Origin: an uncultured Chthoniobacter sp.
Lineage (GTDB): Bacteria > Verrucomicrobiota > Verrucomicrobiia > Chthoniobacterales > JACTMZ01
DNA length: 64,000 bases
Direction: 5' to 3'
Assembly (NCBI GenBank): GCA_964609925.1
Contig: CAZSUJ010000009.1
Coordinates: forward strand, 4,290-68,289
Part shown: positions 34,666 through 63,565 of the stretch, piece after piece
How positions within the stretch are numbered: the stretch's first letter is position 1
How the letters are laid out: every line of letters begins with the position of its first letter
Notes under the pieces: model-generated
What the model saw: the letters and a program-made list of their open reading frames with translations, nothing else
What the model was told of the DNA's origin: nothing
Database searches by the model: none
Program-made: the position numbers and the translations under genes

Positions 34666-34672
34666 ACACAGA

Positions 34673-34700: not shown

Positions 34701-34723
34701 CTGACAGCCTTCAGCACCGCGCT

Positions 34724-42102: not shown

Positions 42103-42144
42103 TTTGCCGGCATTTGGCCGGGAAAAATTGGCATGTATTTGCCA
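42103..42144. promoter_or_regulatory. Candidate operator/promoter region between the divergent GH28 block and the transporter-xylA-fuc operon
   Basis: This is a locally AT-rich segment. It has repeated half-sites TTTGCC / TTGGC: gTTTGCCggcaTTTGGCCgggaaaaaTTGGCAtgtatTTGCCAc. It includes the inverted repeat TGGCA-N6-TGCCA (42129-42144) and the palindrome TGCCGGCA. Confidence 0.3.
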
Positions 42145-42200
42145 CTGTCGCCCTTGGCTGCAGGTGCCACTTCATTCACCCTCGGCCCCACATCCCCCCT

Positions 42201-49940: not shown

Positions 49941-50041
49941 TGCGATCATTGTGAGCGTGATGACCGACGCCCGATGACGATCCGGAGGCGGCATTCTCAC
50001 CTCCGGGGGATAGAGAGCCTCACCGTCGGCGGGCGATTCTC

Positions 50042-50088
50042 CTGTAGCGGCGATGTCCCCATCGCCGGTGGGGACACCGGCGCTACAG
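50042..50088. repeat. REPIN doublet with the two units abutting (5-nt overlap)
   Basis: CTGTAGCGGCGATGtccccATCGCCGGTGgggaCACCGGCGCTACAG. Confidence 0.75.
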
Positions 50089-50189
50089 ACCGATCATCGT
50101 GAGCCAGATGCCCGGTGGTGGTCCGGGCGAGGTCGGCTCACCGCAGGACTCTGCTCGAATGAAGCCCCCCGTCCTCTTGGACCATAAGC

Positions 50190-50219
50190 AAAACCCCGCG
50201 CCGTTGCCGGCGCGGGGTT
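50190..50219 (-). terminator. Rho-independent terminator of the 50248-52326 gene
   Basis: The minus strand reads AACCCCGCGCC-ggcaac-GGCGCGGGGTT followed by TTGCTTAT. This is an 11-bp GC-rich stem and a T-rich tail, about 29 nt after the stop. Confidence 0.65.
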
Positions 50220-50247
50220 GCTTGATGATCGATGATGGAGCCTGCGG

Positions 50248-52326
50248 TCAGGGCTGCAGCACGGCCTCGATGCCCAGGAACTGGTTCGTCGAGGTGCGCG
50301 GGGTGCTGAAGATCTGACGCGCCGTGCCGAAGGGCACGCCGGACTGATCAACCGCATTGCTCTGCGTCACGGTATTCGTGGTCCACGGACCGGTAGCCAG
50401 GTTGGTCGTGGTCCGTCCGATGACCGAGAGGCTCGGGTTGTTCGTCCGGACGATGGCCGTGATGGACAGCAGGTTCGTCGTCAGAGTGGTGACGGACGGA
50501 ACGCTGTTGTTGTTCGTCGGGCCGCTGGCGCCGCCGACCGCGTAGAGGCTGAGGTTCGTCGTGTTGAGCGGTGCGCCCTGCGCCCAGCTCGTGAACGTCG
50601 CCCCTCCATTGTCGTTGCTCCAGAAGACCAAGGGCAGGGTCTGCACCACATTCGAGGGCCCGAGCACCCAGCTGCGGTTCTCGAAGAGGTCGTTCGGGTT
50701 GACGATCTCGTAGCCGTTGTTCACGGGGAAGCCGGGGCTGTAGAACTTGTATTGGTTGGTCGTGCCGGGGGCGCCCGAGATCGCGAACTCGCCCACGTAG
50801 ATGTTCGAGCCGGCGTTGGTCAGGTTGTAGTTCGTGTTGCCGGTCTCGTAGTTCTGCCCGTTGAAGTTGCCGATGACACGGACGACTCCGCCGTTCGTGT
50901 TGAAGTTGCCGTTGGCCACCTGCACGGTCATGTCAACCGAGAAGGACACGGGGCGGCTGGCCGGGACGTTGGTCTGGTTGTTCCAGAACACGGTGGGCTC
51001 GACCTGCGCGGGAGTCGGGCTGCCGTTCGTGTTCAGGGCGAGCACCAACTGGCGGTTGGGATCGTTCTCGTAGCCGCTGTTGGGCATGCCGACGCTGTAG
51101 AATTTGTAGGCGATGTTTTGCCCGTCCAAGCCGGCGATGTTCGAGATCGTTCCGGTGAAGACGCTGTTCGTGCCGGGGGTCAGGATGTTCCCCGAGGCCC
51201 CGCTGGTGTCCCAGTTGTTGAACGCGCCGACCACGAGCACATCGTTCGTGCCGTTGTAGTTGCCGAGCGCCTCTTGCACCGACATGTCCACGGAGAAGGT
51301 CACGTCGCGGAAGCCCTGGATGTTGTTGTAAAACACCGTGGGGAGGGTGAGGGGAGGCGGGGTGGAATTGGTCCCGACCGCGAAGGTCCGGTCAGGCGAG
51401 GTTTCGAGTGAGGCATCGATGGCGAATTTGTAGTTCACCGATGTCCCGTAGAACCCCGGGATGGCAAAGGTGCCTTCGAAGATACCGTTGGTGTCCCCGT
51501 CCGAGAGTTCATAAGCGAGATCACCGGGCGTGAACCCGTTCCAAGCGCCCGCGACGGTGACCACGTTCAGGGCCGGGTTGAAGTTAGTTATGGCCGTCTG
51601 CACGTTCATGTCCACCGAGAAGGTTACGGTGTTGGTGATGGAGAGCGCCGAGTTGGCCAGCGTGTAGGAATTGATGGGGTTAGTGCCGCCCGAAGTGTAG
51701 GGGCCGCCCCAACCGGTGACCGATACGTTCGGGTTCGCCAAGGCATCAAGCGCGCTATCTCCGCCGCCGCTGCCGGAGGAATAAGCATCAAAATAAAGGA
51801 CGCTGCCCAGATTGGTGGTCCCCAAACTGGCTTTGCTCACCGTGTAGTTGATGGTCGAGGTGCCGTTGGTGTTGGTGGCGAACGTGTAGGCGGTGAGGTT
51901 GCCAAGGTTGGTGCTCCAGTTGGTGCCAGTATAGCCCCAGATCTGTGAGCCGCCACCGCCGTTGACCCAAGAACCGATCCAGCGCGTCATGCCGCCAGTC
52001 GGGCCGTTGAGCTGGATCGGGCGATTCCAGCCGTTGCCGGTGTTGGTGTTTGTTGTGGCACCCGTCGCTATGCCGATCATCAAGTTGGCCCAGTCGTTAG
52101 GAGAGGCGATGATGCCATTGACGGTGAGGTTGAAGATCACGTCGCTGCTCGTGTCGGACACCTCCATCTTCACGATGTCCAAGGTGCCTCCGGCCGTCGG
52201 GAGGTTCGTCGCGATGTCACCGATCGCATCCGTGTAAATTGTCGGCTGCGCCAGCAAAGAGCCGGCGGTGAGGCTGAAAACGGCGAAGAACGCGCAGACG
52301 CGCACAACGAGGGGGCGGATTTTCAT
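50248..52326 (-). CDS. Secreted N/T/G-rich protein: glucodextranase-C-like N-domain, three tandem CBM20-like (starch-binding-fold) modules, shared C-terminal domain
   Basis: 692 aa. The signal is MKIRPLVVRVCAFFAVFSLTAGSLLA|Q. DAIGDIATN...LDIVKMEVSDTSSDVIFNLTVNG forms the N-domain. There are three about 105-aa repeats, each opening (T/D/P)V(T/S)FSVDM.VQ and containing ...V.G.(W/F)N....YKF... The C-terminus is NLSLYAVGGASGPT...LSITAIVRTNNPSLSVIGRTTTNLATGPWTTN...RQIFSTPRTSTNQFLGIEAVLQP. Confidence 0.85.
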   Translation of the reverse strand: MKIRPLVVRVCAFFAVFSLTAGSLLAQPTIYTDAIGDIATNLPTAGGTLDIVKMEVSDTSSDVIFNLTVNGIIASPNDWANLMIGIATGATTNTNTGNGWNRPIQLNGPTGGMTRWIGSWVNGGGGSQIWGYTGTNWSTNLGNLTAYTFATNTNGTSTINYTVSKASLGTTNLGSVLYFDAYSSGSGGGDSALDALANPNVSVTGWGGPYTSGGTNPINSYTLANSALSITNTVTFSVDMNVQTAITNFNPALNVVTVAGAWNGFTPGDLAYELSDGDTNGIFEGTFAIPGFYGTSVNYKFAIDASLETSPDRTFAVGTNSTPPPLTLPTVFYNNIQGFRDVTFSVDMSVQEALGNYNGTNDVLVVGAFNNWDTSGASGNILTPGTNSVFTGTISNIAGLDGQNIAYKFYSVGMPNSGYENDPNRQLVLALNTNGSPTPAQVEPTVFWNNQTNVPASRPVSFSVDMTVQVANGNFNTNGGVVRVIGNFNGQNYETGNTNYNLTNAGSNIYVGEFAISGAPGTTNQYKFYSPGFPVNNGYEIVNPNDLFENRSWVLGPSNVVQTLPLVFWSNDNGGATFTSWAQGAPLNTTNLSLYAVGGASGPTNNNSVPSVTTLTTNLLSITAIVRTNNPSLSVIGRTTTNLATGPWTTNTVTQSNAVDQSGVPFGTARQIFSTPRTSTNQFLGIEAVLQP

Positions 52327-52353
52327 GGGGGGATTGTTTGGTAGTTGTTGCGT

Positions 52354-52381
52354 AAATTAGCAGGAGCCGCTTGGGGCGCAA
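52354..52381 (-). promoter_or_regulatory. Weak candidate sigma70-like promoter for the 50248-52326 gene
   Basis: The minus strand reads TTGCGC (52381-52376), 16 nt, TAATTT (52359-52354), about 27 nt before ATG 52326. It overlaps the two CGTAAAT motif copies. Confidence 0.25.
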
Positions 52382-52411
52382 CGTAAATCTGTCCCGTGGC
52401 GCCGCGGCAAG

Positions 52412-52438
52412 CACCTCCCCGGCTGGGCCGGGGAGGTG
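52412..52438. repeat. Perfect 11-bp inverted repeat (stable hairpin) in the divergent intergenic region
   Basis: CACCTCCCCGG-ctggg-CCGGGGAGGTG. There is no flanking T-tract on either strand, so it is not a classical terminator. Confidence 0.7.
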
Positions 52439-52496
52439 ACAGATCCCATCCCGCAGCGGGTGGGCGGCTGGTTTTGGCGACACCACAAAAAACCAG

Positions 52497-52525
52497 TTGA
52501 CATTGCTCCGCGGTATTTACATTGT
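52497..52525 (+). promoter_or_regulatory. Candidate promoter of the pseudopilin operon (A-tract, TTGACA, weak -10); predicts a leaderless or very short-leader mRNA
   Basis: acaaaaaaccag-TTGACA (52497-52502), then either 15 nt and TACATT (52518-52523) or 17 nt and CATTGT (52520-52525). ATG follows at 52532. There is no Shine-Dalgarno sequence. Confidence 0.35.
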
Positions 52526-52531
52526 GATTAC

Positions 52532-53062
52532 ATGAATCAGCCAGAGTTGGCAGTCCGCAGTCCGCAGTCTTCAGGTTCGCAGCTGGCCTCCCGCTCCCTG
52601 ACTCCCGATGCCTGCTGCCACCGCGCCCGGCGCCCCTTCGATGCCTTCACCATGATCGAACTGCTCGTGGTCATCGCCATCATCGCGATCTTGGCCGGCC
52701 TCACTCTCTCCACTCTCGGCTACGTGAACCGCAAAGGCGCGGAATCCCGCGCCCGCGCCGAGGTGGCGGCGCTCTCTACCGCCATCGACAGCTTTTTCGC
52801 CGATTACGCGGCCTACCCGGCCTCGAACAACCTTTTCCGCGAACTCACGGGCCACAGCGCGGCGCCCATCAACACCAATCGCAAAGTCTTTTTCGAGCCC
52901 CCCGCCAACATCACGACCAACCTGACCACCGGTCCATTCATTGATCCTTGGGGAGCGGCCTACAACTACAACCCCAGCAACCCCGTCAACAACGTTGGCT
53001 TCTACGACCTGTGGACAACTGCTGGCGGGAAAACCAACCAGCGCGACTGGATACGAAATTGA
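52532..53062 (+). CDS. GspG-like major pseudopilin (prepilin-type N-terminal methylation domain) with a 38-aa leader
   Basis: ...RARRPFDA|FTMIELLVVIAIIAILAGLTL has the class III signal core with E at +5. The GspG-like body has RAEVAALSTAIDSFFADYAAYP, IDPWGAAYNYNP and YDLWTTAGGKTNQRDWIRN. Confidence 0.85.
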   Translation: MNQPELAVRSPQSSGSQLASRSLTPDACCHRARRPFDAFTMIELLVVIAIIAILAGLTLSTLGYVNRKGAESRARAEVAALSTAIDSFFADYAAYPASNNLFRELTGHSAAPINTNRKVFFEPPANITTNLTTGPFIDPWGAAYNYNPSNPVNNVGFYDLWTTAGGKTNQRDWIRN

Positions 53063-53802
53063 GCGAGGTGCTTCCAGTCGTTAGTCGTCAGTCGTCAGCA
53101 GGAAGAGACTGCGGCCACGCCTGGGTTCGCGCGCTGGGCCGCATTCTTCATTACCGCTCGACTCGTCACTCGCCACCCGTCACTCGTCACCGCGCCCGCC
53201 GCGCGGGCGCCTTCACCCTTCTCGAACTTCTCATCGTCATCGGCCTTATTGCCGTTCTCATGGGGCTGACCCTTCCTGCTTTGCAGGGCCTCTTCGGTGT
53301 GGCCGGTCGGCGGGGCGGGGTGAACGTCCTCGCCGGCGCGATGGAGCAAGCCCGCCTGATCGCTATCCAGCACGGTGTGTCCTCCTACGTGGGTTTCCCG
53401 ATGGCTTTGGCCGACAAGGAGACGGCCTGGAACTCGGTGATTGTGTTCCGTGAGACACGTGCCGATGAGCGAGCGACCAACCCGGCGCAGTTCGCGGTGA
53501 TCAGCCGGTGGTTGCGTTACCCCACCGGCGTTTTTGTTGATCCCGGGACCATTCCTTCTGCCACCGTGAGCATTACTAACCTTCCGCGCTTAGCCAACCA
53601 GCCCGTCACACAGGTGTCAGCCGTCCAATTTGACCGTTTCGGCAAGCTCCGGCCCGAATCGCCCCTCCGGATCCATGTGGGTGAGGGTGTCGTGCAGGGA
53701 TCCACGGTCCGGTTCCGGCCGACGACGAACAATTTCAACGCCCTCAATATCCTCCCGCTCACCGGGCGCGTCAAAATCACCGACGGGGTCCTCGGCGAAT
53801 GA
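53059..53802 (+). CDS. GspH-like minor pseudopilin; start inferred (TTG 53059 overlapping the upstream stop, or GTG 53068)
   Basis: RARRAGA|FTLLELLIVIGLIAVLMGLTLPAL is followed by VNVLAGAMEQARLIAIQHG, a GspH/FimT-like helix. There is no ATG/GTG/TTG between 53068 and the hydrophobic segment, which implies a 48-51 aa leader. Confidence 0.7.
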   Translation: MSEVLPVVSRQSSAGRDCGHAWVRALGRILHYRSTRHSPPVTRHRARRAGAFTLLELLIVIGLIAVLMGLTLPALQGLFGVAGRRGGVNVLAGAMEQARLIAIQHGVSSYVGFPMALADKETAWNSVIVFRETRADERATNPAQFAVISRWLRYPTGVFVDPGTIPSATVSITNLPRLANQPVTQVSAVQFDRFGKLRPESPLRIHVGEGVVQGSTVRFRPTTNNFNALNILPLTGRVKITDGVLGE

Positions 53803-54440
53803 AAACGTCACAGTTTCCGACGCGCACGCGCAACGCACGGGCTGCGGGCACTCGGGCTTTCCCCTGCCTTCCTTCCCCCGTCCCCCGCTCAACCTCTGCC
53901 GCTTCGCCCCAGCGCTCCGCTTTCAGCCTCGTCGAAGTCGTCATCTCCATCGGCATCTTTGCCTTCGTTATCGTCGGGATCGTGGGACTGTTTCCGGCCG
54001 CCCTGCGGGTGCGGTCCGAGTCCGCCCTCGACACCCGGGCCGCCATGATCGCGCAGCAATTGATGGCTGCGGTGGATTCCTCGTCCAGCCTGACCAACGT
54101 GGTTGTGCCCACCGGGGCCTACACGGGGAACCCGGCGACCCGGACGGTCAATGTCCTGCAGAGCAATTTCCCCACGGTCCTTGGCTACCAGTCGCGCAGC
54201 ACCTTTCCGTTCTGGTATTTCCGGACGGCTCCCAACAGCTCCTGGACCAATGCCGGGGGGAGTGACCAAGAAATCGCGCAGTCAGCCGCCAATGAGATCA
54301 CCACCTTGGTGCGCATGTCGGCCACCACCAACAATCTCAACAACCTGGCACAGATCACGATAGAAGTGCGCTCGCCGGCCGCCTTGTCCCTCTCGAATTC
54401 CCGCGTCGTCACATTCACCACCCTGCGCCCGCTGCAATGA
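53799..54440 (+). CDS. GspI-like minor pseudopilin with a 41-aa leader
   Basis: MKTSQFPTRTRNARAAGTRAFPCLPSPVPRSTSAASPQRSA|FSLVEVVISIGIFAFVIVGIVGLF. ATGA overlap with the upstream gene. Confidence 0.75.
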   Translation: MKTSQFPTRTRNARAAGTRAFPCLPSPVPRSTSAASPQRSAFSLVEVVISIGIFAFVIVGIVGLFPAALRVRSESALDTRAAMIAQQLMAAVDSSSSLTNVVVPTGAYTGNPATRTVNVLQSNFPTVLGYQSRSTFPFWYFRTAPNSSWTNAGGSDQEIAQSAANEITTLVRMSATTNNLNNLAQITIEVRSPAALSLSNSRVVTFTTLRPLQ

Positions 54441-55171
54441 AGACGTCGCCACCCTCCTCATCGCTCCCCGCCCGTCATGGGGTGGCCGTCGGAGGCTTCA
54501 CCCTGATCGAGTTGCTGGTCTCATCCGCCATCCTCGGCATCGTGATGTTCATTCTGCTCTCGACGCTCACGACGTCCCTGTCGTTGTGGCGGACAACCGA
54601 GGCAAGTATCTCGTCCGACCGCGAGGGTCGCTCGGCGAACCTCCTGCTCGCCCAGGATCTTGCCAACGCCGTCATGCCCACGAACCCGGCCCTCTGGCCG
54701 CAGGTCACCCCGAACTCGCTGCGCTTCCTCACCCTCCGTTCGCCGGAGTATCAAGGAGCCACCAACGGCGTCGGTGACCTGTGTTTCGTGGAGTATCGGG
54801 TCGGGCCCGACACCACCAGCAGCACGACCAACTTCGTTGCGCTGACTCGCAACTTCGTGGGGAGCACGGCTACTTATGCGGCGCTCAAGAATGGCAACTT
54901 CCCGACGGTTGACGCGTCGCGGGCCCAGTTGCTTGCGGCCAACGTGGTCCCGAACCGCCGCGTCCTTTATTATAACAACGACATCACGGACGCCTATTTC
55001 AACGCCCTCGGCACAAACGGCCTTCCGGTCACCGCCAACGCCCGTCCGGCCATTATCGACGTGACCATCTCCACCGCCGACGAGGAAGGCGTGCGCACTC
55101 TCGACATAACCAACAAGCAGTTGCGGAGCGGGGGGTATTTCTCCTTCCGTGTCGCTCTGCCCAGACCATGA
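54437..55171 (+). CDS. GspJ-like minor pseudopilin
   Basis: MKTSPPSSSLPARHGVAVGG|FTLIELLVSSAILGIVMFILLSTLTTSLSLWR is PulJ-like. ATGA overlaps at both ends. Confidence 0.75.
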   Translation: MKTSPPSSSLPARHGVAVGGFTLIELLVSSAILGIVMFILLSTLTTSLSLWRTTEASISSDREGRSANLLLAQDLANAVMPTNPALWPQVTPNSLRFLTLRSPEYQGATNGVGDLCFVEYRVGPDTTSSTTNFVALTRNFVGSTATYAALKNGNFPTVDASRAQLLAANVVPNRRVLYYNNDITDAYFNALGTNGLPVTANARPAIIDVTISTADEEGVRTLDITNKQLRSGGYFSFRVALPRP

Positions 55172-58100
55172 AGAAAACCCCCAACTGCCCACACGAGGAA
55201 AAGGGCGCCGTGCTCGTCACGACGCTCATCGTCCTCACCGTTCTTGCGGTCGTTGCCGTCGCTTTCATGCAGAGCAGTTCGATGGACCAGCTCGCCTCGC
55301 GCAGCGTGTCCGGCGCCTACCAGGCCCAGTTGATCGCCGACGCGGCCGTCGGGGTCGCGCGCGGGGAGGTGGCCCGCCTGATCCAGCGCTACCCGGATTC
55401 CGCCACGGTCTGGCAGAACATCGGGGGAGGTCAGACCAACGAGGCCACCGTTCTCTATGTGCGTGCCGACGCCAACAACACCAGCACCAACGCCCGGCCC
55501 GGCCAGTCTGGCGCCGAGGTGGCCTTCCTCGGCTACCCGCTCGTCTCCCGCACAAATACGAATCCGCTGACGCTTCCTGTCCTGGCGACCAACATGCCTT
55601 TCACCACGGCCAATCGGGAGATGGTCAACCTGAACGCGACAAACTCCAGTCGCTCGAACGCCTTCATCGGCCAACGCTCGATGACAAATCCCGGCGCACC
55701 AGTCGCCGCCGCCGACTGGATCTACATCGGGCGGAACCCCGGCCCGACCAACACCACCAATCCGCCGATTGGCCGGTATGCCTACTGGGTTGAGGACGAG
55801 AGCTTCAAGGTCAACGTCAATACCGCTACCAACGGGGCCCGGGGCACCAGCACGAACATCGGTCCCGACGGCGTCCGCTTGGACGGCTCGTGGCAGAGTT
55901 CCTCCAACGCCGCCGTGCGCGCCGCCGCAGCCGCCACCGTGGTGTCGGATCGCGGAACCAACGCATCCTTCTTCCCGACGGCCGGCTCGGCTGCCGTGGC
56001 CGCGGGCTTGCCCGATTCGCGCTCGGCTGACGAGTTCCGCTTCCTCACCACCGCGCACTCCGCCGGTCTCGACCTCTCCCGCGGCGGATTCCGGCGTTTC
56101 AACCTCAACACCATCACCAACGGCGACAAGCGCACTGCTCTCAACCGCGTCATCACCGCGATAACCAACTCCAACGCAGCCCCGCTATTCGGCCAGCGGT
56201 TTTACCGCACCAACAACAACGTTTTGGGCATCAACGACACCAACGCCGTCTCTACGAACCACGCGGCCATCTACCTCCAGAAGATCGCGGCGAACATCTA
56301 CGACTACCTCGACAGCGACGACCAGCCGACCATCATCAATAACGACGCCACCTACACCCTGCGCACCGGGCGGCCGACGGAGCCGATCTTCGCCGTCGGT
56401 GGAGGATATGACGGCAGCAATTCCATCGCGGCTTTCGGCGTCGAGAGTTTCCCGCGTCTGCAGGAATGGGCCATGCACGCGAGGGTGTGGCGGATGTCCT
56501 ACAGCAACGGCCCCGACAGCCGCAGCAATTTCGGGTTTGTGCACAACGCCACCAACCCCACCGCGAATCCCACTCGGGCTGACTACGAAATCTGGCTGGA
56601 CTACTACTTCGAGTTTTACAACCCCGGCACGCGAGACATCACGGTCAGCAATGCGTTCATCACGCTCGACAAGTTGCCGGCGTTCGACGGCGGCGGGTCA
56701 GGGGATGCACTCGCCAACGAACGCTCGATCACCAACATCCCGTTGAATGCCACCTTCCCCGCGGGCCGGGTCACGATCCTCTCCACGGCACCCATCGGGG
56801 AGGACAGCTTTTCGAGCAGCAGCTCCGGAGGCATCATCACCAACCGGGCGGACGTCGTTTATCTGACAGTTGCCGATACCAACCGCAAATTCACGGGCTT
56901 CACCACCAATATTGCAGTGCAAACTTACGACCCTGTCGGCGACAACCGGGTTCCGCCGAATCCGAACTTCAATCGCCTTTTCCAAGTCTCGATGAGGACC
57001 GGTCCCCAGACCAAAGGCTCCATCTTGATCGGAAACGACGCTGGCATCTTGGAAAGCTTTGTCGGGCTTCCATTCAACGCCCAGACTAACCCCAACGTCA
57101 GCGGTATGGCACTGAGGATCGGAAGCGGCTGGATCCGCAATGGGCTGATGACCATCGGCGATGGCAACAACGACAATGTGCGTGCGGCGAGCCTTTTTGG
57201 GAACAGTAATGACGGCAACGCCCGCCCTTCAGCCACCGAGGGCGATCCGCGGGCACTGAACGATCAATTGGAGTTCTTCAACTTTGCGACGAGCAACGCT
57301 GACCGCGACCAGACGCGCTTCTATGTCGCCGTCACCGGCAACTCGGGGCTCCCCGAGAACTCGACATTCGGCAGCCTCAACACCAATTACGTGTGGGCGA
57401 CGAACTGGACGGACTACACGCCTTGGCAGCCGAACTCGAACAATGCCCCGCTTTTCGTCCGAAACAGCCCCATGCTCAGCGTCGGTGAACTCGGCCACAT
57501 CACCGATCCGGCCCGGACGCTTGGCTCCTCCGGCAACATCGCCCGCTCGCGGGGAGGCGGGAGAACATTCCGGATCGGGCAGCCCGAGTTGACCAACGCG
57601 AACAGCCCCTGGCGCCAGGCCTGGTATACAGGAAGCCAGACCAATGCCAGCCGCACATGGACGTCTTGGCGTCTGGCCGACATCTTCACCGTCACCACAA
57701 ACACGAACGTGGCCATCCGCGGCCTGGTCAACCCGAACGGCGCCCTGCGTGACAACGGCGCCGCCCTGCGCGCCGCCCTCTTCGGACTTACCTTCCTCCC
57801 CGTCACCCCCGAAGGCGCCTCCTCCCTTGCGGGACGGGGAGCCAACGTTAGCAACGTGGTCAGCAATGTGGTGGCCCGCCTCACCAACGGTGCCGCGTCA
57901 GGCTTCGGCGCCGGGACCTTTAACCCGTTCTGGGAGCGTGGCGAGATCTCGGAACTGGCCGTCCTCAACTCATCCGCCTCGGGCACCGTGGCCGGTGGTG
58001 CGGTCATGTCGAACGCATTCGACCGTGGCCGCGAAGAGTTGGTGCGCCGCTCCATCGAGATGATTACCACGCGTGGTAGCGTCTTCACGGTCTATGCCGT

Positions 58101-58302
58101 CGGCCAGTCGTTGCGCGTCACCCCCAACTCAACTAATGTCACCGGCACGGTGACCGCCAAGAGCACCTTCGAGATCACTCCGCAGTTTGCGATCGGTGGA
58201 ACGAATGACGCTTTTGATCTGGCCAATGCCAACGCTGTCACCCGGCGTTTCCTGCCCCCCACCAACTACACCACCAAGGTCATCTCCACGTCCTACGATT
58301 AG
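55168..58302 (+). CDS. Giant (1044 aa) GspK-like pseudopilin-tip protein
   Basis: EEKGAVLVTTLIVLTVLAVVAVAFMQSS is a GspK-type non-cleaved hydrophobic N-terminus (RG.AL..VL...). GRYAYWVEDESFKVNVN matches the T2SSK signature (F/YA.wieDE..KiNlN). The remainder is N/T/S/G-rich with no family I recognise. Confidence 0.8.
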   Translation: MKKTPNCPHEEKGAVLVTTLIVLTVLAVVAVAFMQSSSMDQLASRSVSGAYQAQLIADAAVGVARGEVARLIQRYPDSATVWQNIGGGQTNEATVLYVRADANNTSTNARPGQSGAEVAFLGYPLVSRTNTNPLTLPVLATNMPFTTANREMVNLNATNSSRSNAFIGQRSMTNPGAPVAAADWIYIGRNPGPTNTTNPPIGRYAYWVEDESFKVNVNTATNGARGTSTNIGPDGVRLDGSWQSSSNAAVRAAAAATVVSDRGTNASFFPTAGSAAVAAGLPDSRSADEFRFLTTAHSAGLDLSRGGFRRFNLNTITNGDKRTALNRVITAITNSNAAPLFGQRFYRTNNNVLGINDTNAVSTNHAAIYLQKIAANIYDYLDSDDQPTIINNDATYTLRTGRPTEPIFAVGGGYDGSNSIAAFGVESFPRLQEWAMHARVWRMSYSNGPDSRSNFGFVHNATNPTANPTRADYEIWLDYYFEFYNPGTRDITVSNAFITLDKLPAFDGGGSGDALANERSITNIPLNATFPAGRVTILSTAPIGEDSFSSSSSGGIITNRADVVYLTVADTNRKFTGFTTNIAVQTYDPVGDNRVPPNPNFNRLFQVSMRTGPQTKGSILIGNDAGILESFVGLPFNAQTNPNVSGMALRIGSGWIRNGLMTIGDGNNDNVRAASLFGNSNDGNARPSATEGDPRALNDQLEFFNFATSNADRDQTRFYVAVTGNSGLPENSTFGSLNTNYVWATNWTDYTPWQPNSNNAPLFVRNSPMLSVGELGHITDPARTLGSSGNIARSRGGGRTFRIGQPELTNANSPWRQAWYTGSQTNASRTWTSWRLADIFTVTTNTNVAIRGLVNPNGALRDNGAALRAALFGLTFLPVTPEGASSLAGRGANVSNVVSNVVARLTNGAASGFGAGTFNPFWERGEISELAVLNSSASGTVAGGAVMSNAFDRGREELVRRSIEMITTRGSVFTVYAVGQSLRVTPNSTNVTGTVTAKSTFEITPQFAIGGTNDAFDLANANAVTRRFLPPTNYTTKVISTSYD

Positions 58303-58347
58303 GCCCGGAGATTGACTTTTTTGGCGGCTTCCTTTCCCTCTCTCTTC

Positions 58348-59337
58348 ATGATGATAAAGACGTTCGTCCATTCCGTTTGCGCCATCACCTTGCTGTTCTC
58401 GATCACCGTTTGCTCGGCCCAGACCAGCCCGGATGGAGTGGTGGGGGTCGGGGCCAGCGAAGTGCCCAAGGCCCAGTTGAGGCTGTTTGTCTTCCCCTTC
58501 GACGACTCCTCTCCGGCGCTCGTGGCCCGCGCCCAGGTCAAGGGCATGGAAGCACCCGCGGTGGTCGCCTCCGCGCCGGCCGGACGCAGCTCTGCTGAAC
58601 CGGGCTACGTTGATTTTCCCGCCGGCGATGGCGGCTACGAGGTGCTCGCGGGGGACAAACCCGTCGCCACCGGCCCCCTGCGGCTCGCGCCCAACCGCGC
58701 TTACACCATCGTCGCTTGGCAGGGTGGAGACCGCGCCTGGCAGGCCAAGCTGTTTTCGGATGATTCGGCGTCTTCCGCGCGTGCTATGCGTGTTCTGAAC
58801 TTCGTTCCCGGCCGCAAGTCGGTCGTGAGCGCCGGCGAGGCCGAGCCGGCCGCCGTGCCTGCCGCCACCGTGCAGGAGGTCCAGGTTCCGGCCAAGACCC
58901 TCGATATCCGCGCCCAAGTCCAAGACCCCGCAGGCGGCGCTCCTTTCCAGACCTCCACCGCATTCGACTTCTCCCAGGCCGGAAGCGGCTACCTGCTGAT
59001 CGCACCCGACTACCGCGGCAAGCCGGACATCAGAATGGTTCCCGGCGGTTTCGTCACCGCGACCGCCGAGGTTGCGGCGGCCGCCTCGGCCCCTGTGGCG
59101 CCGCCCAGCGCCTCGGACATCCAGAAAGAGGCTCAACAGACCCGTAAGCGTAGCCTGGCCTACCTCAAGCAGGCCCTCGCCGATCTGGAGGCCCTGCAAG
59201 CCGGACCGAATCCTCCCCCCAACGCCGACGCCATCCGGCGGGAGCTCCAGCAGCAACTCAAGGCCGTGGACCAACCCGCGGCTCCGGAGCCTGCTCCCGC
59301 CGCCCCTCGGGGAGCTGCGGCCGAGGCCGCGAGGTAG
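58348..59337 (+). CDS. Secreted hypothetical protein (beta-rich body plus C-terminal coiled-coil/Pro-Ala tail)
   Basis: MMIKTFVHSVCAITLLFSITVCSA|Q is a signal peptide. The 5' end is locally AT-rich. The C-terminus is DIQKEAQQTRKRSLAYLKQALADLEALQ...IRRELQQQLKAVDQPAAPEPAPAAP. The TTG at 58312 in the track is less likely as a start. Confidence 0.7.
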   Translation: MMIKTFVHSVCAITLLFSITVCSAQTSPDGVVGVGASEVPKAQLRLFVFPFDDSSPALVARAQVKGMEAPAVVASAPAGRSSAEPGYVDFPAGDGGYEVLAGDKPVATGPLRLAPNRAYTIVAWQGGDRAWQAKLFSDDSASSARAMRVLNFVPGRKSVVSAGEAEPAAVPAATVQEVQVPAKTLDIRAQVQDPAGGAPFQTSTAFDFSQAGSGYLLIAPDYRGKPDIRMVPGGFVTATAEVAAAASAPVAPPSASDIQKEAQQTRKRSLAYLKQALADLEALQAGPNPPPNADAIRRELQQQLKAVDQPAAPEPAPAAPRGAAAEAAR

Positions 59338-59593
59338 GGCCTCACCCGGCTTGACGAATCGGAAGGGCGCGCCGCTTACGCCTCCAACGGTCCGCGAAAG
59401 CTCAGGTTTTATGCTCGCGTGTCCCGTGCTGGCACGCGACTTGCTGTATTCTTGTCCGAAAAGGACCGCTCCGGCACCCGTTTCTCCTCAAGCCGACCGT
59501 TACAATCCCGTCACGGCCGGATATTTGGGTTGAAGCTGGGTCCTTCCCGGCCCACGTTTCACCAGCACCGTCGAACGCCCACCCATCCCAATC

Positions 59594-62500
59594 ATGACCA
59601 CCACCCGCCCCGCCCTCCGACTCCTCGCCGCTGCTGCTCTGGCGTCCTGCCTCAGCGCCACTGCTCACGCCCAACAGACATTCTTCAACTTGGCTGCCGG
59701 CAACTACTCGCAGGATTTCTCGAGCATAGGAGCATGGTCGAACAGCTACGCTGGCGGGACAGGGGCTGAAAACTGGCGGGTGGCCACCAGCGTGGCCTCC
59801 TCTCTGGTCACCAACGTCAACGTCTTTACCACCGCCACAAGCGGAGGCGTGCAAAGGGGCACGAACTCCATGGTGTTCCTCGCCACCGGCGCAAACACCG
59901 GCGGCACGGATCTGCTCCTTAACTTTTCCGGGCGCACATCGGGAATAATGAGCTTCAATTGGAGCAAGATCGCCAACACGCCTAACGAGACCAACGCCCG
60001 TTCCTCAGATCTGAAGGTGCAATACAGCACGGACAATGGAACCAACTTCACGGACATTACCAACTACGCTATCCCCCGCATCAACAACAACAGCACTCCG
60101 GAAAGCGGCAGCCTGAATTTCTCACTGCCCTCCGCGCTTTCCGGCCAACCCCAAGCCGTGCTGCGCTTCTTTTTCTGGAACAACGGGCAGGTCGGCGGTG
60201 CAGGCAATCGCCCCAAATGGAACATCGACGACGTCTTGATTACGTCGTCGGGTGCCGCCACCGCCCCGGTTGTGACCTCCTTCTCTCCGGCGACTGGTGC
60301 GGCAGGGACCTCGGTGACCATCGGCGGTTCGAATTTCACCGGCGCCACCAACGTCTCGTTCAATGGCGTGGCAGCTACTTTTCTCTTCAACAGTGACACC
60401 AGTATCACCGCTTCCGTTCCCGTTGGTGCCTTGAGTGGTCCGATTTCGGTCGCCAGCACCAATGGGACGGGCCTGAGCAGTAGCAATTTCCTCGTGCCTA
60501 CGCTCTCTGTCATCCTACCGGCCACCATCAACGAAGGTGATACCAGCTTCGGCGAGGTCACGCTTAACGAGACAAACGCCTCGGACATCAACGTGACCGT
60601 GACCAGTTCAAGCACGAACGATCTCGTGATCGACCCTGCGCCTATCGTCATCTTCGCCGGCCTTACCAACGCCTTCTTCAATTTCACCGCACCGCTGGAT
60701 AGCACGATCGACGGCGACACCAACGTGACCGTGACACCCTCCGCGGCTGGTTTTGCCTCCATCCCCGACACCATCACAGTAGTCAATGTGGACGCGGTGA
60801 AGATCCCGCTGACCTCGTTCTCCACGAACAGCTACATTCAGAATTTCGACAGCCTCGGCACCACCACGGTCTCCAATGTTGTTTCGCTCACCAGCGGAGT
60901 GCAGACCAGCTTGGGGACCGCCATAAGCACCAACCTGAACGGATGGTTCGCGGCCAAGATCGCCGGTAGTGCTGGTATCCCGAACGTGGTGGCCGATAAC
61001 GGCAGCAGCTCCAGCGGAGCGGTCTACAACTACGGCACAACTGGTGCCACGAACAGGTCGCTGGGCGGGCTCGCCAGTGGCAGTCTGACTCCCGCGTTTG
61101 GCGCATTGGTGGTAAACAACACCGGATCCACCATCAACTCCATTATCCTCAACCTCACGGGCAAATTCTGGCGGCCCTCGGCAGCCAACACTAACTCACT
61201 CAACTTCGCCTTCGGCGTCGTGGACGGAGTCAGCGTCAACAACAACAACTTCCTCACCACAGCCTCGGCCACCAATCTCTCGCTAGCGAACATAGTCGGT
61301 CCGGTGGTTGCTACCACCAACGACCAGACTCCCCTGGACGGCAACCTTGCCACCAACCAAGTCTTGATCAGCAACGTCGTCATTCCAGTGAGTTTGGCGC
61401 CCGGCGAGACGATGTTCTTCCGCTGGCAAGATTTCGACAACGTGAATGCCGACGCCGGCCTCGCCATCGACGACCTCAGCCTGACCGCGTCAACTAACCT
61501 TGCCGCTCCGTCGGTTGCCGCGGTCACCGTCAATCCGTTTGCCCTCGCCCAGGATCAGGCCCAGATCGCCTCCTCGGTTGTTTCCGAGGGTGGCTCAACC
61601 CTGACGGCCCGAGGCTTCGTCTATTCCGAGAGCTTCTTCAATACGAACCCGGTCATCGGCGGTCCGAACACGACGGCGATCACGAACACACCGGCCGAGG
61701 TTGGTGCCTTCACCAACACGATCACCGGCCTCCTCGCCAGCACGGCCTACACAGTTCGTTCCTTCGCCATCAATGCCCAGGGCACAAACTACAGCGTCGG
61801 GACGACCTTCAATACACTCGCGCCCAACCCGGCCTTCAGCGGGGTCTACACCCAGAGCTTCGACGGCCTGACCAATACGTTCTTCCCGAACGGTTGGCGC
61901 TGCCTCTCGACCAGCAACGTGAACAACTATGCGGGCGATTGGAACAGCACCAATGCTGTGGCCGTGGGCTTCTACGGCCGCACCAACATCCCCGGCATCC
62001 TCGGCTACCTCCACGGCAACGCGACTGGTATCCTCAGCAATCGCCTGACACTGGTGAACAACACAGGTGGAACACTGACCAACCTCTGGGTGTCTTACAC
62101 CGGTGAGGTCAATGTGCTGAATCCCACCAGCAACACCCGCTTCCCTGAGTGGACCGTGGTGGTGGACGGGCAGACCAATAGCGCCCTCTTCTACTCCACC
62201 GCGGGCGGCGTCAGCTCGAACCTCGTGGCGGAGATCACCGGGCTTAGCATCACGAATGGCGGTAACATCATCATCTCGTGGTCGTCCGATCGCGGCGCTG
62301 GCACCGGCTCGTCCCGCATGATCGGCATGACGGATGTCCGCGTGGCGACCAACGCGCCGCCGATCGGGACCCCGACCATCAACGTGAGCGGTTCGCTGAC
62401 GAACTTCACCACCACGGTCGGCACGGCCTCCGCCTCGCAGTCCTTCACGGCCTCGGGCACCAATCTGGTTGGCGACATCGAGGTGTCGACGCCGGCCTTC

Positions 62501-63049
62501 TACCAAGTGAGTGTGGACAACACGAACTTCTCGGGGGCCTTGAACCTGGCGCCGTCCGGCGGCGTGGTGACCAACACCTTGCTCTACGTCCGCCTCGCCG
62601 CGAACGCACCGGTCGGCAGCCCCGCCGGTAACGTGCTGCTCGGCAGCACCAACGCCGCGATCCAGACGGTGCCGGTGACCGGCACGGTCTTCAGCACCTA
62701 CACGGCATGGCTCAATGGTGCCCCGACGAACAATGCCAACCTGCTCAAATACGCCATCGGCGGCGCGAGCAGCCCGACGGCGACGGACGGCACGGCGCCC
62801 GCCACGGCAGTGACCAGCAGCAACCTGTCCATCACCGCCATCGTGCGCACGAACGACCCGGCCCTCGACGTCATCGGCGAAGGCCTGACCAACCTGAGCG
62901 TCGGTCCTTGGAGCACGAACGGCGTGACCCAGACGGTCTCGACGAACCAGGCGGGCGTGCCCACCGGCACCGAGCGGCAGATCTTCAGCATCCCGCGCGG
63001 CACGAACACCAGCCAGTTCCTCCGCCTCGACAGCATCCTGCAGCCGTAA
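59594..63049 (+). CDS. Large (1151 aa) secreted adhesin-like protein: three Y.Q.FD.LG-type sensor/binding modules, IPT/TIG, Calx-beta-like and Fn3-like domains, shared C-terminal domain
   Basis: The signal is MTTTRPALRLLAAAALASCLSATAHA|QQ. IPT/TIG evidence: PVVTSFSPATGAAGTSVTIGGSNFTGATNVSFNGVAA. Three modules begin YSQDFSSIG / YIQNFDSLG / YTQSFDGLT and end in ...IDDV/IDDLSL/MTDVRV. The C-terminus is NLLKYAIGGASSPT...LSITAIVRTNDPALDVIGEGLTNLSVGPWSTN...RQIFSIPRGTNTSQFLRLDSILQP. Confidence 0.85.
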   Translation: MTTTRPALRLLAAAALASCLSATAHAQQTFFNLAAGNYSQDFSSIGAWSNSYAGGTGAENWRVATSVASSLVTNVNVFTTATSGGVQRGTNSMVFLATGANTGGTDLLLNFSGRTSGIMSFNWSKIANTPNETNARSSDLKVQYSTDNGTNFTDITNYAIPRINNNSTPESGSLNFSLPSALSGQPQAVLRFFFWNNGQVGGAGNRPKWNIDDVLITSSGAATAPVVTSFSPATGAAGTSVTIGGSNFTGATNVSFNGVAATFLFNSDTSITASVPVGALSGPISVASTNGTGLSSSNFLVPTLSVILPATINEGDTSFGEVTLNETNASDINVTVTSSSTNDLVIDPAPIVIFAGLTNAFFNFTAPLDSTIDGDTNVTVTPSAAGFASIPDTITVVNVDAVKIPLTSFSTNSYIQNFDSLGTTTVSNVVSLTSGVQTSLGTAISTNLNGWFAAKIAGSAGIPNVVADNGSSSSGAVYNYGTTGATNRSLGGLASGSLTPAFGALVVNNTGSTINSIILNLTGKFWRPSAANTNSLNFAFGVVDGVSVNNNNFLTTASATNLSLANIVGPVVATTNDQTPLDGNLATNQVLISNVVIPVSLAPGETMFFRWQDFDNVNADAGLAIDDLSLTASTNLAAPSVAAVTVNPFALAQDQAQIASSVVSEGGSTLTARGFVYSESFFNTNPVIGGPNTTAITNTPAEVGAFTNTITGLLASTAYTVRSFAINAQGTNYSVGTTFNTLAPNPAFSGVYTQSFDGLTNTFFPNGWRCLSTSNVNNYAGDWNSTNAVAVGFYGRTNIPGILGYLHGNATGILSNRLTLVNNTGGTLTNLWVSYTGEVNVLNPTSNTRFPEWTVVVDGQTNSALFYSTAGGVSSNLVAEITGLSITNGGNIIISWSSDRGAGTGSSRMIGMTDVRVATNAPPIGTPTINVSGSLTNFTTTVGTASASQSFTASGTNLVGDIEVSTPAFYQVSVDNTNFSGALNLAPSGGVVTNTLLYVRLAANAPVGSPAGNVLLGSTNAAIQTVPVTGTVFSTYTAWLNGAPTNNANLLKYAIGGASSPTATDGTAPATAVTSSNLSITAIVRTNDPALDVIGEGLTNLSVGPWSTNGVTQTVSTNQAGVPTGTERQIFSIPRGTNTSQFLRLDSILQP

Positions 63050-63077: not shown

Positions 63078-63112
63078 GCAGAGCGGGGAGCAATCCCCGC
63101 TCTGCCTTTTTT
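63078..63112 (+). terminator. Rho-independent terminator
   Basis: GCAGAGCGGGGA-gcaa-TCCCCGCTCTGC followed by CTTTTTTG, 29 nt after the stop at 63049. Confidence 0.8.
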
Positions 63113-63322: not shown

Positions 63323-63565
63323 GTGAAGCAATACCGTCCGGACGTCGAGCGCCAGAAGTGGCTTTACTCGATGGAGAAGTCGCGCGCGATCATGCGGCGA
63401 CGCCAAGGCAAGCTGCCCGGACCTGACCCGGCCAAGAGGCCGATTCCCGACAACTCCGAGCCATGGCTGCCCGGCGGGGTGCGCTCGGTGGCCGGCGCGC
63501 TCTGGATTTCGGACCGGATCAAGGAGGACATGCAGCGATGGGGAGTCAAACCTCCGACGACCTGA
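63323..63565 (+). CDS. Small hypothetical protein (weak call)
   Basis: 80-aa ORF with a GTG start and no recognisable motif. It overlaps the next ORF by 28 nt. It may be real only from an internal ATG. Confidence 0.3.
   Translation: MKQYRPDVERQKWLYSMEKSRAIMRRRQGKLPGPDPAKRPIPDNSEPWLPGGVRSVAGALWISDRIKEDMQRWGVKPPTT

Follow-up and report, generated by a model that had tools for sequence, protein, structure and literature searches.

The locus formed by the genes G, H, I, J, K and X, together with the flanking genes A and B, is probably a paralogous accessory cassette, restricted to Chthoniobacterales and belonging to the T2SS pseudopilin class, that provides the priming or tip subunits of a type-IV filament (rough probability 0.55). 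This reading draws on protein families, gene order, translational coupling, synteny and paralogy, as well as on the adjacency of related cassettes to genes for a GspE-type ATPase. Both the class of machine and a Verru_Chthon-like cassette are already known; what appears to be new, judging from sequence comparison, is the subtype with its own GspG-type gene, the secreted protein X, and two proteins, A and B, which share a C-terminal (Ct) domain.

The window, by which we mean the whole 64-kb stretch of DNA analysed, derives from a soil and freshwater Verrucomicrobium of the order Chthoniobacterales; the Opitutales lineage suggested when only the sequence had been read was wrong.

Architecture of the locus

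The coordinates of the ORFs A, G, H, I, J, K, X and B were all confirmed (Table 1), as were the order G-H-I-J-K, with its giant K, and the absence of core secretion genes nearby (ORFs, Pfam, tblastn). Among the ORFs of the 64 kb, only G, H, I and J carry the prepilin motif [G/A]F-x-x-x-E together with a hydrophobic helix; the Pfam N_methyl model is passed by G, I and J and is borderline in H. The junctions H/I, I/J and J/K each consist of a 4-nt overlap, and these genes are therefore translationally coupled. Coupling had been proposed for all five genes, but since the start of H is ambiguous it cannot be asserted for G/H. The spacing from K to X is 9-45 nt. The terminator expected after B is present as a hairpin followed by a T run. 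Orthologues of the EEP gene adjoin A or the cassette in four related loci (L002, L010, L084 and L091; 45-64% identity), and this gene is a conserved neighbour that possibly lies outside the system.

Table 1. Features of the cassette and its flanks, in window coordinates; functional names are predictions.
Feature	Position	Strand	Description
EEP gene	48448..49848	+	Exo_endo_phos (EEP) family protein (Pfam PF03372), membrane-anchored, convergent with A
Hairpin 3' of A	50192..50219	-	Terminator-like; 12-bp stem, 10 G-C pairs
A	50248..52326	-	692-aa secreted protein; signal peptide, N-terminal beta-sandwich, three starch-binding-domain-like modules, Ct domain
Ct domain of A	50251..50616	-	About 120 aa, extreme C-terminus
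Modules of A	50662..51642	-	Tandem array of three CBM48/CBM20-like modules with the 'GAFNNW' motif; about residues 229-555
G	52532..53062	+	GspG-type major pseudopilin; prepilin signal ...DA|FTMIELL
H	53197..53802 (start uncertain, between 53011 and 53197)	+	Minor pseudopilin; ...GA|FTLLELL
I	53799..54440	+	Minor pseudopilin; ...SA|FSLVEVV; N_methyl; 4-nt overlap with H
J	54437..55171	+	Minor pseudopilin; ...GG|FTLIELL; N_methyl; 4-nt overlap with I
K	55168..58302	+	1044-aa GspK/PilX-type cap pseudopilin; KG|AVLVTTL, no Glu+5; PilX_N; 4-nt overlap with J
X	58348..59337	+	329-aa secreted protein; signal peptide, weak DUF4397-like beta domain, helical Pro/Ala-rich tail
B	59594..63049	+	1151-aa secreted multi-beta-sandwich giant; signal peptide, Reelin/F5_F8-like, TIG-like and repeated MAM-like modules, Ct domain
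Ct domain of B	62681..63046	+
Hairpin and T run	63078..63105	+	Intrinsic-terminator-like, end of the G-to-B transcription unit; 12-bp stem, 9 G-C pairs

Pseudopilins and the giant protein K

G exceeds the Pfam cut-offs for both N_methyl (28.5 bits) and T2SSG (26.0 bits) and has the C-terminal pattern DPWG...Y.Y. Its score against TIGR01710 is 44.5, under the cut-off of 88.85, and a member of its cluster bears the JGI name 'general secretion pathway protein G'. H scores 21.0 bits against N_methyl (cut-off 21.2). The best NCBIfam matches of the minor pseudopilins, all below cut-off, are Verru_Chthon D for H (E = 1.9e-6), Verru_Chthon B for I, in which XpsI and PilV match the N-terminus only, and Verru_Chthon C for J (E = 1.5e-9). 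Alignment with hhalign yielded 91% for H against E. coli GspH over 68 N-terminal columns, 57% for I against GspI, at the N-terminus only, and 95% for J against E. coli GspJ over 119 columns that extend into the globular domain. With the exception of J, the resemblance to known families covers the N-terminal helix and weak motifs only, in I and K, or scarcely more, in H.

K has more than 220 full-length homologues. PilX_N is its sole Pfam match, and it scores 54.9 bits against Verru_Chthon A (cut-off 332). In profile-profile comparison with GspK, residues 1-82 reached 95.7% and residues 280-407, which include the motifs RRFNLNT and IYDYLDSDDQPT, 47.5% (E = 2e-4); the first ~400 residues bear a remote resemblance to GspK. 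Pfam T2SSK matched none of 22 K homologues. The AF2 model of K is poor (pLDDT 54), and its body of ~960 aa yielded neither a confident model nor a structural match.

Conservation of the cassette and its partners

The G-H-I-J-K-X core is kept, with X directly 3' of K, in all 13 related loci with enough flanking sequence, and X is a core partner of the window's cassette subfamily. The description of X as a secreted coiled-coil protein was half right, as the signal peptide is present and 'coiled-coil' fits the last ~80 residues only. Among close loci with enough flank, A is found upstream and divergent in seven of nine, and B downstream in five of seven. Down to 28-31% K identity, in two other families, K is still followed by a Ct-bearing giant that resembles B; in one such locus (L055, K 31% identical) this giant is collinear with B, with E = 1e-6 over the TIG region and 49% identity in the Ct domain. 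In distant cassettes the passenger after K varies, but the Ct domain is kept. The flanking proteins are therefore syntenic with the pseudopilins, the opposite of the outcome that the sequence-only reading had named as speaking against itself. Two cassettes that are otherwise intact (L010 and L011) lack both A and B.

Secreted proteins and the Ct domain

The three CBM20-like modules claimed for A are partly borne out. Within A itself the AMPK1_CBM match is sub-threshold in Pfam; homologues of A, on the other hand, have precomputed CBM48, AMPK-CBM, CBM20 and CBM53 matches (PF02922, PF16561, PF00686, PF16760), and a Foldseek search with the model of A (pLDDT 80; 85-95 in the module region) retrieved cyclodextrin glycosyltransferases at probability 1.0. 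The N-terminal beta-sandwich has a weak Glucodextran_C match.

The homology between the C-termini of A and B was upheld (51% identity over 144 aa, E = 3e-34), and these are the only two copies in the window. The model of A gives the Ct domain a short helix and a six-strand beta-sandwich (pLDDT about 85-93) and no transmembrane segment; no model in Pfam or NCBIfam matched it. The domain is not special to A and B: at least 490 clusters of secreted proteins, whose passengers are unrelated, have it at their very C-terminus and nowhere else, and most of these are not encoded beside a cassette. Three unrelated giants in the window end with a looser version (collinear alignment, E = 9e-5 to 1e-3).

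Such breadth weighs on the proposal that the locus is a dedicated type-IV-filament-linked apparatus for glycan capture or adhesion, in which the Ct domain would dock or target A and B to the pseudopilus. We regard this as possible but rather unlikely. The modules of A, the synteny of both Ct proteins with the cassette and the retention of the Ct domain in distant cassettes speak for it. So do the genes found beside Ct-protein genes elsewhere, namely a prepilin-T2SSE-T2SSF-prepilin operon directly downstream in two loci (L099 and L119) and a PilT-like ATPase in two more (L127 and L131). Across 68 non-cassette Ct loci, moreover, the density of filament genes is 11 per 100 kb up to 1.5 kb from the Ct gene and drops to 1.1 per 100 kb at a distance of 5-10 kb, but dereplication weakens this trend, leaving roughly 6 against 1 independent contexts by a rough hand estimate. 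Most Ct-protein genes lie away from cassettes, some of them adjoining other pilin, GspE or GspF genes, and of 79 Ct loci sampled, most are out of reach of any filament gene. The alignment of the Ct domain with the generic C-terminal module of the three giants, and the cassettes devoid of A and B, likewise count against a dedicated apparatus.

The glycan component fares no better. A polysaccharide-degradation neighbourhood does exist in the window, where two GH43 genes, GH29, GH52, GH28, a SASA esterase, FucI and an SSF transporter are encoded, but it is not conserved: one related locus (L140) has housekeeping genes on its flanks, and FucI or GH28 neighbours occur in no related locus. The ligand class predicted for A, alpha-glucan, is mismatched with the fucose, xylan and pectin enzymes nearby. 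The term 'glycan capture' has its one basis in the starch-binding-like modules of A.

Core machinery and paralogous cassettes

Neither Pfam, applied to the large ORFs, nor tblastn with E. coli Gsp proteins, a search of low sensitivity for C, L and M, detected GspC, D, E, F, L, M or O in the 64-kb window, confirming the reported lack of core secretion and prepilin peptidase genes. This is compatible with a detached G-K block of a single housekeeping T2SS, to which A, B and X would be bystanders through phylogenetic inertia, a reading that we find improbable. Close relatives share the outer neighbours (the EEP gene and the ORF after B) as well, a pattern suggestive of plain orthologous synteny. 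Against a detached block stand the constancy of X and the linkage of K to a Ct giant at 28-31% K identity, where all other neighbours have changed. Several K-family loci are, furthermore, present per MAG (JTS-AC390, VE1, SRP242652_co1_74), and the closest relative has one window-type cassette (K 87% identical) and one distant cassette (L006 and L059).

It is the distant cassettes, not those of the window type, that adjoin ATPase genes: a T2SSE/MshEN ATPase gene is divergent to the cassette in five loci (L028, L031, L046, L051 and L053), and in L036 the cassette is divergent to GspF plus G. This places K-type cassettes within type-IV-filament machines, and the adjacency to a GspE-type ATPase leads us to regard the window locus as an accessory paralogous set. 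A cultured Verrucomicrobium offers a precedent, with 67 PulG-like paralogues scattered apart from a single T2SS core locus and a pseudopilin among its alginate-overexpressed genes (PMC13274419).

We consider it very doubtful that the cassette acts in priming a type IV pilus at the cell surface (MSHA-like or T4a-like, perhaps retractile) for attachment or motility, instead of a periplasmic T2SS endopilus, with K as a PilY1/PilC-type tip adhesin. The PilX_N domain of K, the MshEN-bearing ATPase of L046, whose neighbours are a Ras-like GTPase and a Roadblock protein reminiscent of the MglA/MglB pair, the PilT-like ATPase and LytS/LytTR genes adjoining a Ct gene, and the multi-copy minor-pilin-plus-PilY1 clusters of Myxococcus would suit this reading, but G is GspG-type by its T2SSG domain and C-terminal pattern, MshEN (PF05157) is found in GspE too, K has no PilY1/PilC beta-propeller match, and no PilT or secretin context was seen for the window's cassette type.

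Proposed function of the cassette

In the accessory filament cassette that we favour, G would be the polymerising GspG-type subunit and H, I and J minor pseudopilins, while K, a GspK/PilX-type cap without Glu+5, would sit at the tip of the filament with its ~960-residue body exposed. X would act as a co-translated secreted partner. Prepilin peptidase, ATPase, platform and secretin would be encoded elsewhere and are probably common to the genome's other cassettes. B, an Ig/TIG-rich giant, may be an ancient partner of cassettes of this kind, and A, a starch-binding-module protein, a gain of one subclade. Both are envisaged as secreted proteins working with the filament, which would most likely export them or keep them at the cell surface; filament assembly, the placement of K and any physical or functional link with A, B or the Ct domain are inferred.

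Relation to known systems

The nearest relative is the cassette Verru_Chthon A-D (TIGR02600, TIGR02598, TIGR02599, TIGR02596) of Verrucomicrobiota (Verrucomicrobium and Chthoniobacter, judged by family name), in which three prepilin-type proteins accompany a protein of >1000 aa with a pilin-like N-terminus. The curated family is multi-copy per genome, and no mention of it was found in the literature searched. The best NCBIfam matches of H, I, J and K correspond one-to-one to D, B, C and A, so that the H-I-J-K block does have a precedent, annotated if uncharacterised. Every window score is nevertheless far below cut-off, and of 15 other K-family proteins 13 score 35-68 against Verru_Chthon A (cut-off 332) and two do not match. 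The window cassette is a sister family, not a member, and its subtype adds a GspG-type gene of its own, secreted X, and the Ct proteins A and B.

The T2SS GspH-I-J-K tip with GspG (E. coli/ETEC, Vibrio Eps, Klebsiella Pul) shares the G-H-I-J-K order with overlapping frames, prepilin signals from G to J, a K without Glu+5, a G that passes Pfam T2SSG and a J that aligns into the GspJ globular domain; the N-terminal ~80 residues of K and its two internal motifs are also common to GspK. The window differs in that K is threefold longer (1044 versus about 330 aa) and no homologue matches T2SSK, in lacking C, D, E, F, L, M and O, in the extra conserved X, and in the several paralogous sets per genome. 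The T4a minor-pilin and PilY1 clusters (Pseudomonas fimU-pilVWXY1E; three clusters in Myxococcus xanthus) likewise combine 4-5 pilin-like genes with a tip-associated protein of >1000 aa, offer alternative clusters per genome serving one machine, and share PilX_N with K. In the window, by contrast, the large protein K would itself be the pilin-like cap, with no separate PilY1 and no PilY1/PilC domain, and the major subunit is GspG-type.

In Klebsiella, pulA, the gene for a T2SS substrate, lies divergently beside the secretion genes pulC-O, and A resembles its product as a secreted protein with CBM48-type starch-binding modules encoded divergently to a pseudopilin-containing operon. Unlike that arrangement, A has no catalytic domain and the window operon no core secretion genes.

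The Ct domain, finally, recalls the sorting domains of T9SS (CTD), PEP-CTERM/exosortase and, among T2SS substrates, GlyGly-CTERM/rhombosortase in being a ~120-aa module restricted to the extreme C-terminus of unrelated passengers and often encoded near putative machinery. It departs from them in matching no Pfam or NCBIfam model, in its predicted fold of helix and beta-sandwich free of transmembrane segments, and in the distance of most copies from filament genes; we know of no sorting enzyme for it. It is an unnamed domain, carried by large secreted proteins that stay linked to the cassette across related genomes.

Organization of the locus

The sequence-only reading of this window described a divergent secreted protein of 692 aa (A), a run of five pseudopilin-like genes (G, H, I, J and the giant K), a secreted protein of 329 aa (X) and a secreted giant of 1151 aa (B), and all eight ORFs were recovered at the positions it gave. 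The translational coupling it proposed holds for H/I, I/J and J/K, each pair overlapping by 4 nt; for G/H it cannot be asserted, as the start of H is ambiguous. X begins 9-45 nt downstream of K, and inspection of the sequence shows Sec-type signal peptides on A, X and B. The strong terminator reported 3' of B was found again as a hairpin with a T run, and A has a terminator of its own. No GspC, D, E, F, L, M or O gene was detected in the 64 kb, either by Pfam on the large ORFs or by tblastn with the E. coli Gsp proteins, in agreement with the same reading. Scanning the window for Rfam families and for tRNAs gave neither. Coordinates of the features discussed here are collected in the table below.

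A motif scan for prepilin signals followed by a hydrophobic helix identified exactly four ORFs in the 64 kb, namely G, H, I and J, each with a class III signal (G or A, then F-x-x-x-E with the Glu at +5). G exceeded the cut-offs of both Pfam N_methyl (28.5) and T2SSG (26.0, cut-off 21). I and J exceeded that of N_methyl (21.7 and 23.2, cut-off 21.2), H scored 21.0 against the same cut-off, and K matched PilX_N only. By its Pfam matches G is a GspG-type pseudopilin, with a score of 44.5 against the stricter NCBIfam equivalog TIGR01710, under the cut-off of 88.85. No match to Pfam T2SSH, T2SSI or T2SSJ was found in H, I or J, and family profiles of the three, built from 18-23 orthologues, matched PDB pilins over the N-terminal helix only. 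When aligned with the E. coli K-12 proteins by hhalign, J matched GspJ with 95% probability over 119 columns, H matched GspH with 91% over 68 columns, and I matched GspI with 57%, at the N-terminus only.

The N-terminus of K, a protein of 1044 aa, reads KG/AVLVT(+5)TL, and 22 homologues have the consensus G-x-ALVTT; K therefore lacks the Glu at +5 of assembling pilins. PilX_N (PF14341) scored 30.9 on K (cut-off 25.5) and was present in 21 of the 22 homologues, none of which matched the Pfam T2SSK models (T2SSK_1st, T2SSK); the NCBIfam GspK model NF037980 gave 19.6, under its cut-off of 130. Profile-profile comparison with 31 GspK sequences aligned residues 1-82 of K with 95.7% probability (E = 9e-9) and, more weakly, residues 280-407 (47.5%, E = 2e-4). 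The latter match takes in the FNLN and DY(I/L)DxDD(Q/S)P motifs, with RRFNLNT lying opposite CFNLNAL and IAANIYDYLDSDDQPT opposite IADYIDVDDSP. That K is a remote cap protein of the GspK/PilX type with very large insertions is accordingly supported but not proven. Its AlphaFold2 model, computed from a 22-sequence alignment, had a mean pLDDT of 54. Foldseek against the PDB returned nothing under E = 0.03, with weak lamin-tail and Ig matches to the central beta-sandwich only, and the K-family profile matched no PDB sequence. No Pfam match to a beta-propeller adhesin of the PilY1/PilC type was seen in K, X, A or B.

The body of K can apparently work apart from a filament. Stand-alone paralogues of about 1190 aa (in loci L003 and L008, with proteins P0045 and P0051 named alongside) have a Sec signal peptide, with an FN3-like domain ('...GFYRL') replacing the pilin helix at the N-terminus, and no pilin genes lie within 10 kb. 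Two further homologues of about 1470 aa have a precomputed match to FGE-sulfatase (PF03781).

Relation to known cassettes and filament machines

The best NCBIfam matches of the last four pseudopilins correspond one-to-one with the Verru_Chthon cassette (TIGR02596/02598/02599/02600): H with D (28.1, cut-off 70), I with B (27.6, cut-off 51.4), J with C (37.6, cut-off 256.5) and K with A (TIGR02600; 54.9 bits, cut-off 332.3). Of a further 15 K-family proteins, all encoded at other loci, 13 likewise had TIGR02600 as their best match, at 35-68 bits, and two did not match this model. As in the Verru_Chthon cassette, three prepilin-type proteins are combined with a giant whose N-terminus is pilin-like, genomes have more than one copy, and the host lineage is the Verrucomicrobiota. 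Since all scores fall far under the cut-offs, we regard H-I-J-K as a sister family of that cassette and not as a member. The Verru_Chthon cassette is annotated without a functional description, and a literature search for its name and for the TIGR0259x/02600 accessions found no paper. What is new here is the addition of a conserved set of partners, and of an unnamed C-terminal domain family, to a minor-pilin cassette related to it.

K has more than 220 full-length homologues in protein databases (44-76% identity), none carrying a name. Relatives of K are encoded at 59 loci, counting one genome per species, the nearest being 73-87% identical, and nearly all belong to MAGs of the Chthoniobacterales, Chthoniobacteraceae or Terrimicrobiaceae. 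As the nearest of these loci all come from the Chthoniobacterales, the lineage is that order, and an origin in the Opitutales is rejected. Several K-family loci may occur in one MAG (L002 and L003 in JTS-AC390; L004 and L008 in VE1; L006, L014 and L059 in SRP242652_co1_74).

Distant cassettes, with K 25-34% identical, usually comprise H-I-J-K alone. Five of them are divergent to a T2SSE/MshEN ATPase and one adjoins a GspF gene and a G gene; K-type cassettes therefore belong to type-IV-filament machines. Cassettes of the type found in the window have no adjoining ATPase within the flanks of 10 kb on either side. In one distant locus (L046) the ATPase operon also encodes a Roadblock/LC7 protein and a Ras/Arf-like small GTPase, a pair resembling MglA/MglB.

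The best-supported reading of the locus is an accessory pseudopilin cassette that primes, or forms the tip of, a type IV filament. G would be the major subunit, H, I and J the minor subunits, K a giant cap and X a partner, while peptidase, ATPase, platform and secretin would be supplied by genes at other sites. The filament may be an endopilus or a surface pilus, and K may display a binding surface. The earlier proposal, a filament-linked apparatus for glycan capture or adhesion, is confirmed as to what was observed and supported in part as to its interpretation. The locus defines a conserved and widespread unit with a full G-H-I-J-K set, a cap subunit of about 1000 aa and specific secreted giants.

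To our knowledge, the dozens of pseudopilin genes in PVC bacteria have so far been explained by no one; if the link between cassette and secreted giants is functional, part of this expansion would be explained. A cultured Verrucomicrobium offers a precedent: it has 67 PulG-like paralogues, many of them orphans away from its one T2SS core, and a pseudopilin is among its genes over-expressed on polysaccharide (PMC13274419).

Conserved partners of the cassette

Synteny was counted over loci with K at least 43% identical and with enough flank. X lies directly 3' of K in all 13 loci, A is upstream and divergent in 7 of 9, and B is downstream in 5 of 7, with a further partial copy at a contig end; the pairing of both flanking proteins with the pseudopilins thus extends to most of these loci. 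L010 and L011 keep G to X and are missing both A and B. Transposases of the IS200 type (Y1_Tnp), one at the position of A in L010 and one beside B in L140, hint at a way in which the flanks are remodelled.

At two distant loci, one (L047) with K 28% identical and the other (L055, from a Terrimicrobiaceae MAG) with K at 31%, a giant of 1456 or 1361 aa bearing the C-terminal domain of A and B comes right after K. The L055 giant is collinear with B (TIG region, E = 1e-6; C-terminal domain, 49% identity). Being kept at such distances, the pairing of K with a B-like giant is not explained by the mere common descent of close genomes. In L047 a 330-aa ORF after K is not detectably X-like. The association of the cassette with secreted giants goes back to an early stage of the family for B and belongs to one subclade for A. 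Different followers are seen in other distant cassettes. Giants with PATR repeats and, by eye, PEP-CTERM-like C-termini come next in L021, a tandem second gene of the K type in L026, and in L052 a giant that combines the generic C-terminal module described below with a pro-kumamolisin domain.

The three CBM20-like modules ascribed to A fall short of the Pfam threshold (AMPK1_CBM, 17.5 against 26.8) but are supported by predicted fold and by homologue matches. Homologues of A (47-68% identity) have precomputed matches to CBM48, AMPK-CBM, CBM20 and CBM53 (PF02922, PF16561, PF00686, PF16760), and the repeats contain 'G(A/S)FNNW', a motif characteristic of CBM48. The AF2 model (mean pLDDT 79.9, modules 85-95) consists of an N-terminal beta-sandwich, three SBD-like modules and the C-terminal domain. 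Many cyclodextrin glycosyltransferases were retrieved with it by Foldseek (probability 0.96-1.00, most 0.99-1.00; E from about 6e-6 to 1e-4), the matches being local ones within multi-domain chains. The modules are thus predicted from the model to have a starch-binding-domain fold. B is made up of multiple beta-sandwiches and has a TIG-like domain. Searches of PDB sequences with B and with the A profile gave nothing significant.

Glycan capture is a possible role suggested by A alone, and the ligand class predicted for it, alpha-glucan, is a mismatch with the fucose, xylan and pectin enzymes nearby. The polysaccharide-degradation neighbourhood is real in the window, where two GH43 genes, GH29, GH52, GH28, a SASA esterase, FucI and an SSF transporter surround the locus, but FucI and GH28 neighbours occur in no related locus. 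Around the cassette of L140 (K 64% identical) are genes for DHDPS, DapF, malate/lactate dehydrogenase and HU, together with a cation-efflux gene. Given this lack of conservation, we rejected a functional link with the fucose, xylan and pectin genes.

A C-terminal domain common to A and B

The similarity noticed between the C-termini of A and B is real, spanning about 120 aa (51% identity over 144 aa, E = 3e-34), and the window holds only these two copies. An exhaustive profile search ruled out a domain unique to the pair: at least 490 representative clusters matched with E <= 1e-3, of which 290 reached E <= 1e-10; no Pfam or NCBIfam model covers it. Among 150 matches listed, the proteins range from 57 to 2570 aa (the shortest are probably fragments), and in nearly all the match lies at the last residues. 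The domain in this respect resembles C-terminal sorting domains, being restricted to the very end of numerous secreted proteins whose passengers are unrelated. In the window, three further large proteins that are secreted end in a related but more generic, TSP3-like module ('DxDGDG..N..EYA.G..P ... RF(L/M)R(L/I)KV'), to which the profile aligned collinearly with modest significance (E = 9e-5 to 1e-3).

Among 79 metagenomic loci with the domain, only orthologues of A or B adjoin a cassette, and most have no filament gene nearby. L099 and L119 present the order giant with the domain, prepilin, T2SSE, T2SSF, prepilin, and the first step of this order, the domain-bearing gene followed by a prepilin, is also seen on three short contigs. 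Over the 68 non-cassette loci, filament-related genes number 11 per 100 kb within 1.5 kb of the domain-bearing gene and 1.1 per 100 kb at 5-10 kb, figures that are not dereplicated, because clustering by identity of the domain merged loci of different contexts; rough dereplication by hand leaves about 6 contexts against 1. This fall with distance is suggestive only. The locus also delimits an unnamed domain family recurring beside pilin, GspE and GspF genes.

The domain may be a signal for export or for docking, or simply a surface module that is common. A more specific proposal, which we consider unlikely at perhaps one chance in five, is that it acts as a new C-terminal targeting or docking signal by which large adhesins rich in Ig domains, as well as glycan-binding proteins, reach a type-IV-filament machine with K capping its tip and X possibly the adaptor. 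If so, the Verrucomicrobiota would possess a specific route of protein display or secretion built from swappable pseudopilin cassettes. A functional link would also show how abundant polysaccharide degraders of soil and lakes put binding proteins on their surface; failing that, a Verru_Chthon-related family not captured by the present models of Pfam and NCBIfam would remain useful for annotation.

Positions and properties of features in the window and in related loci (L-numbers)
Feature	Location	Strand	Description
A	50248-52326	-	Secreted protein
G to B	52532-63049	+	Consecutive genes G, H, I, J, K, X, B
K	55168-58302	+	Giant
B	59594-63049	+	Secreted giant
Terminator	63078-63105		Hairpin and T run, 3' of B
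Generic-module giants	12846-15236; 21092-27556; 28419-32807	-	Large secreted proteins
Exo_endo_phos gene	48448-49848	+	Membrane-anchored, convergent with A; kept in L002, L010, L084, L091 (45-64% identity)
ORF 3' of B	63427-63999	+	Runs off the window; no Pfam match; relatives after B in L002, L005, L061/L062, L140 (53-72% identity)
Propeller-transporter ORF	42114-44627	+	Kelch/NanM-like beta-propeller (about residues 156-297) and sodium:solute symporter (378-779)
Two small overlapping ORFs	34046-34710	-	Amid CAZyme genes; resemble PIN/VapC-type toxin and antitoxin by sequence alone
Lower G+C	50001-62000		0.59-0.64; 0.65-0.69 across most other parts (0.64 at 44-46 kb)
IS200-like transposases	L010:6433-7458; L140:19744-20181	-	Y1_Tnp
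Distant-cassette followers	L021:15187-21622; L026:14882-17875; L052:15037-19809		PATR-repeat giants; tandem K-like gene; pro-kumamolisin giant
ATPase operon	L046:682-6927	-	Divergent from distant K cassette; also an 824-aa protein, T2SSE ATPase with MshEN domain, TPR protein with MshEN domain
Stand-alone K-body paralogues	L003:9434-13003; L008:9128-12700
Giants with C-terminal domain	L099:2-7711; L119:1-5790		YDG, RCC1-like and cadherin domains
Gene with C-terminal domain	L127, L131 (1-3959)		Abuts PilT-like ATPase and LytS/LytTR two-component pair
Second GspG-like genes	L002:16533-17012; L004:17379-17741; L010:16792-17490; L011:11905-12336; L062:14781-15134; also L076, L081, L100	-

The second GspG-like pseudopilin gene recurs on the opposite strand a few kb 3' of B, X or other genes with the C-terminal domain, and the equivalent position here falls past the end of the window. 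The lower G+C around the locus could be caused by the Asn/Thr/Ser-rich secreted proteins or by a separate origin of the module. The propeller-transporter ORF, an unusual mutarotase-transporter fusion, adjoins the fucose genes.
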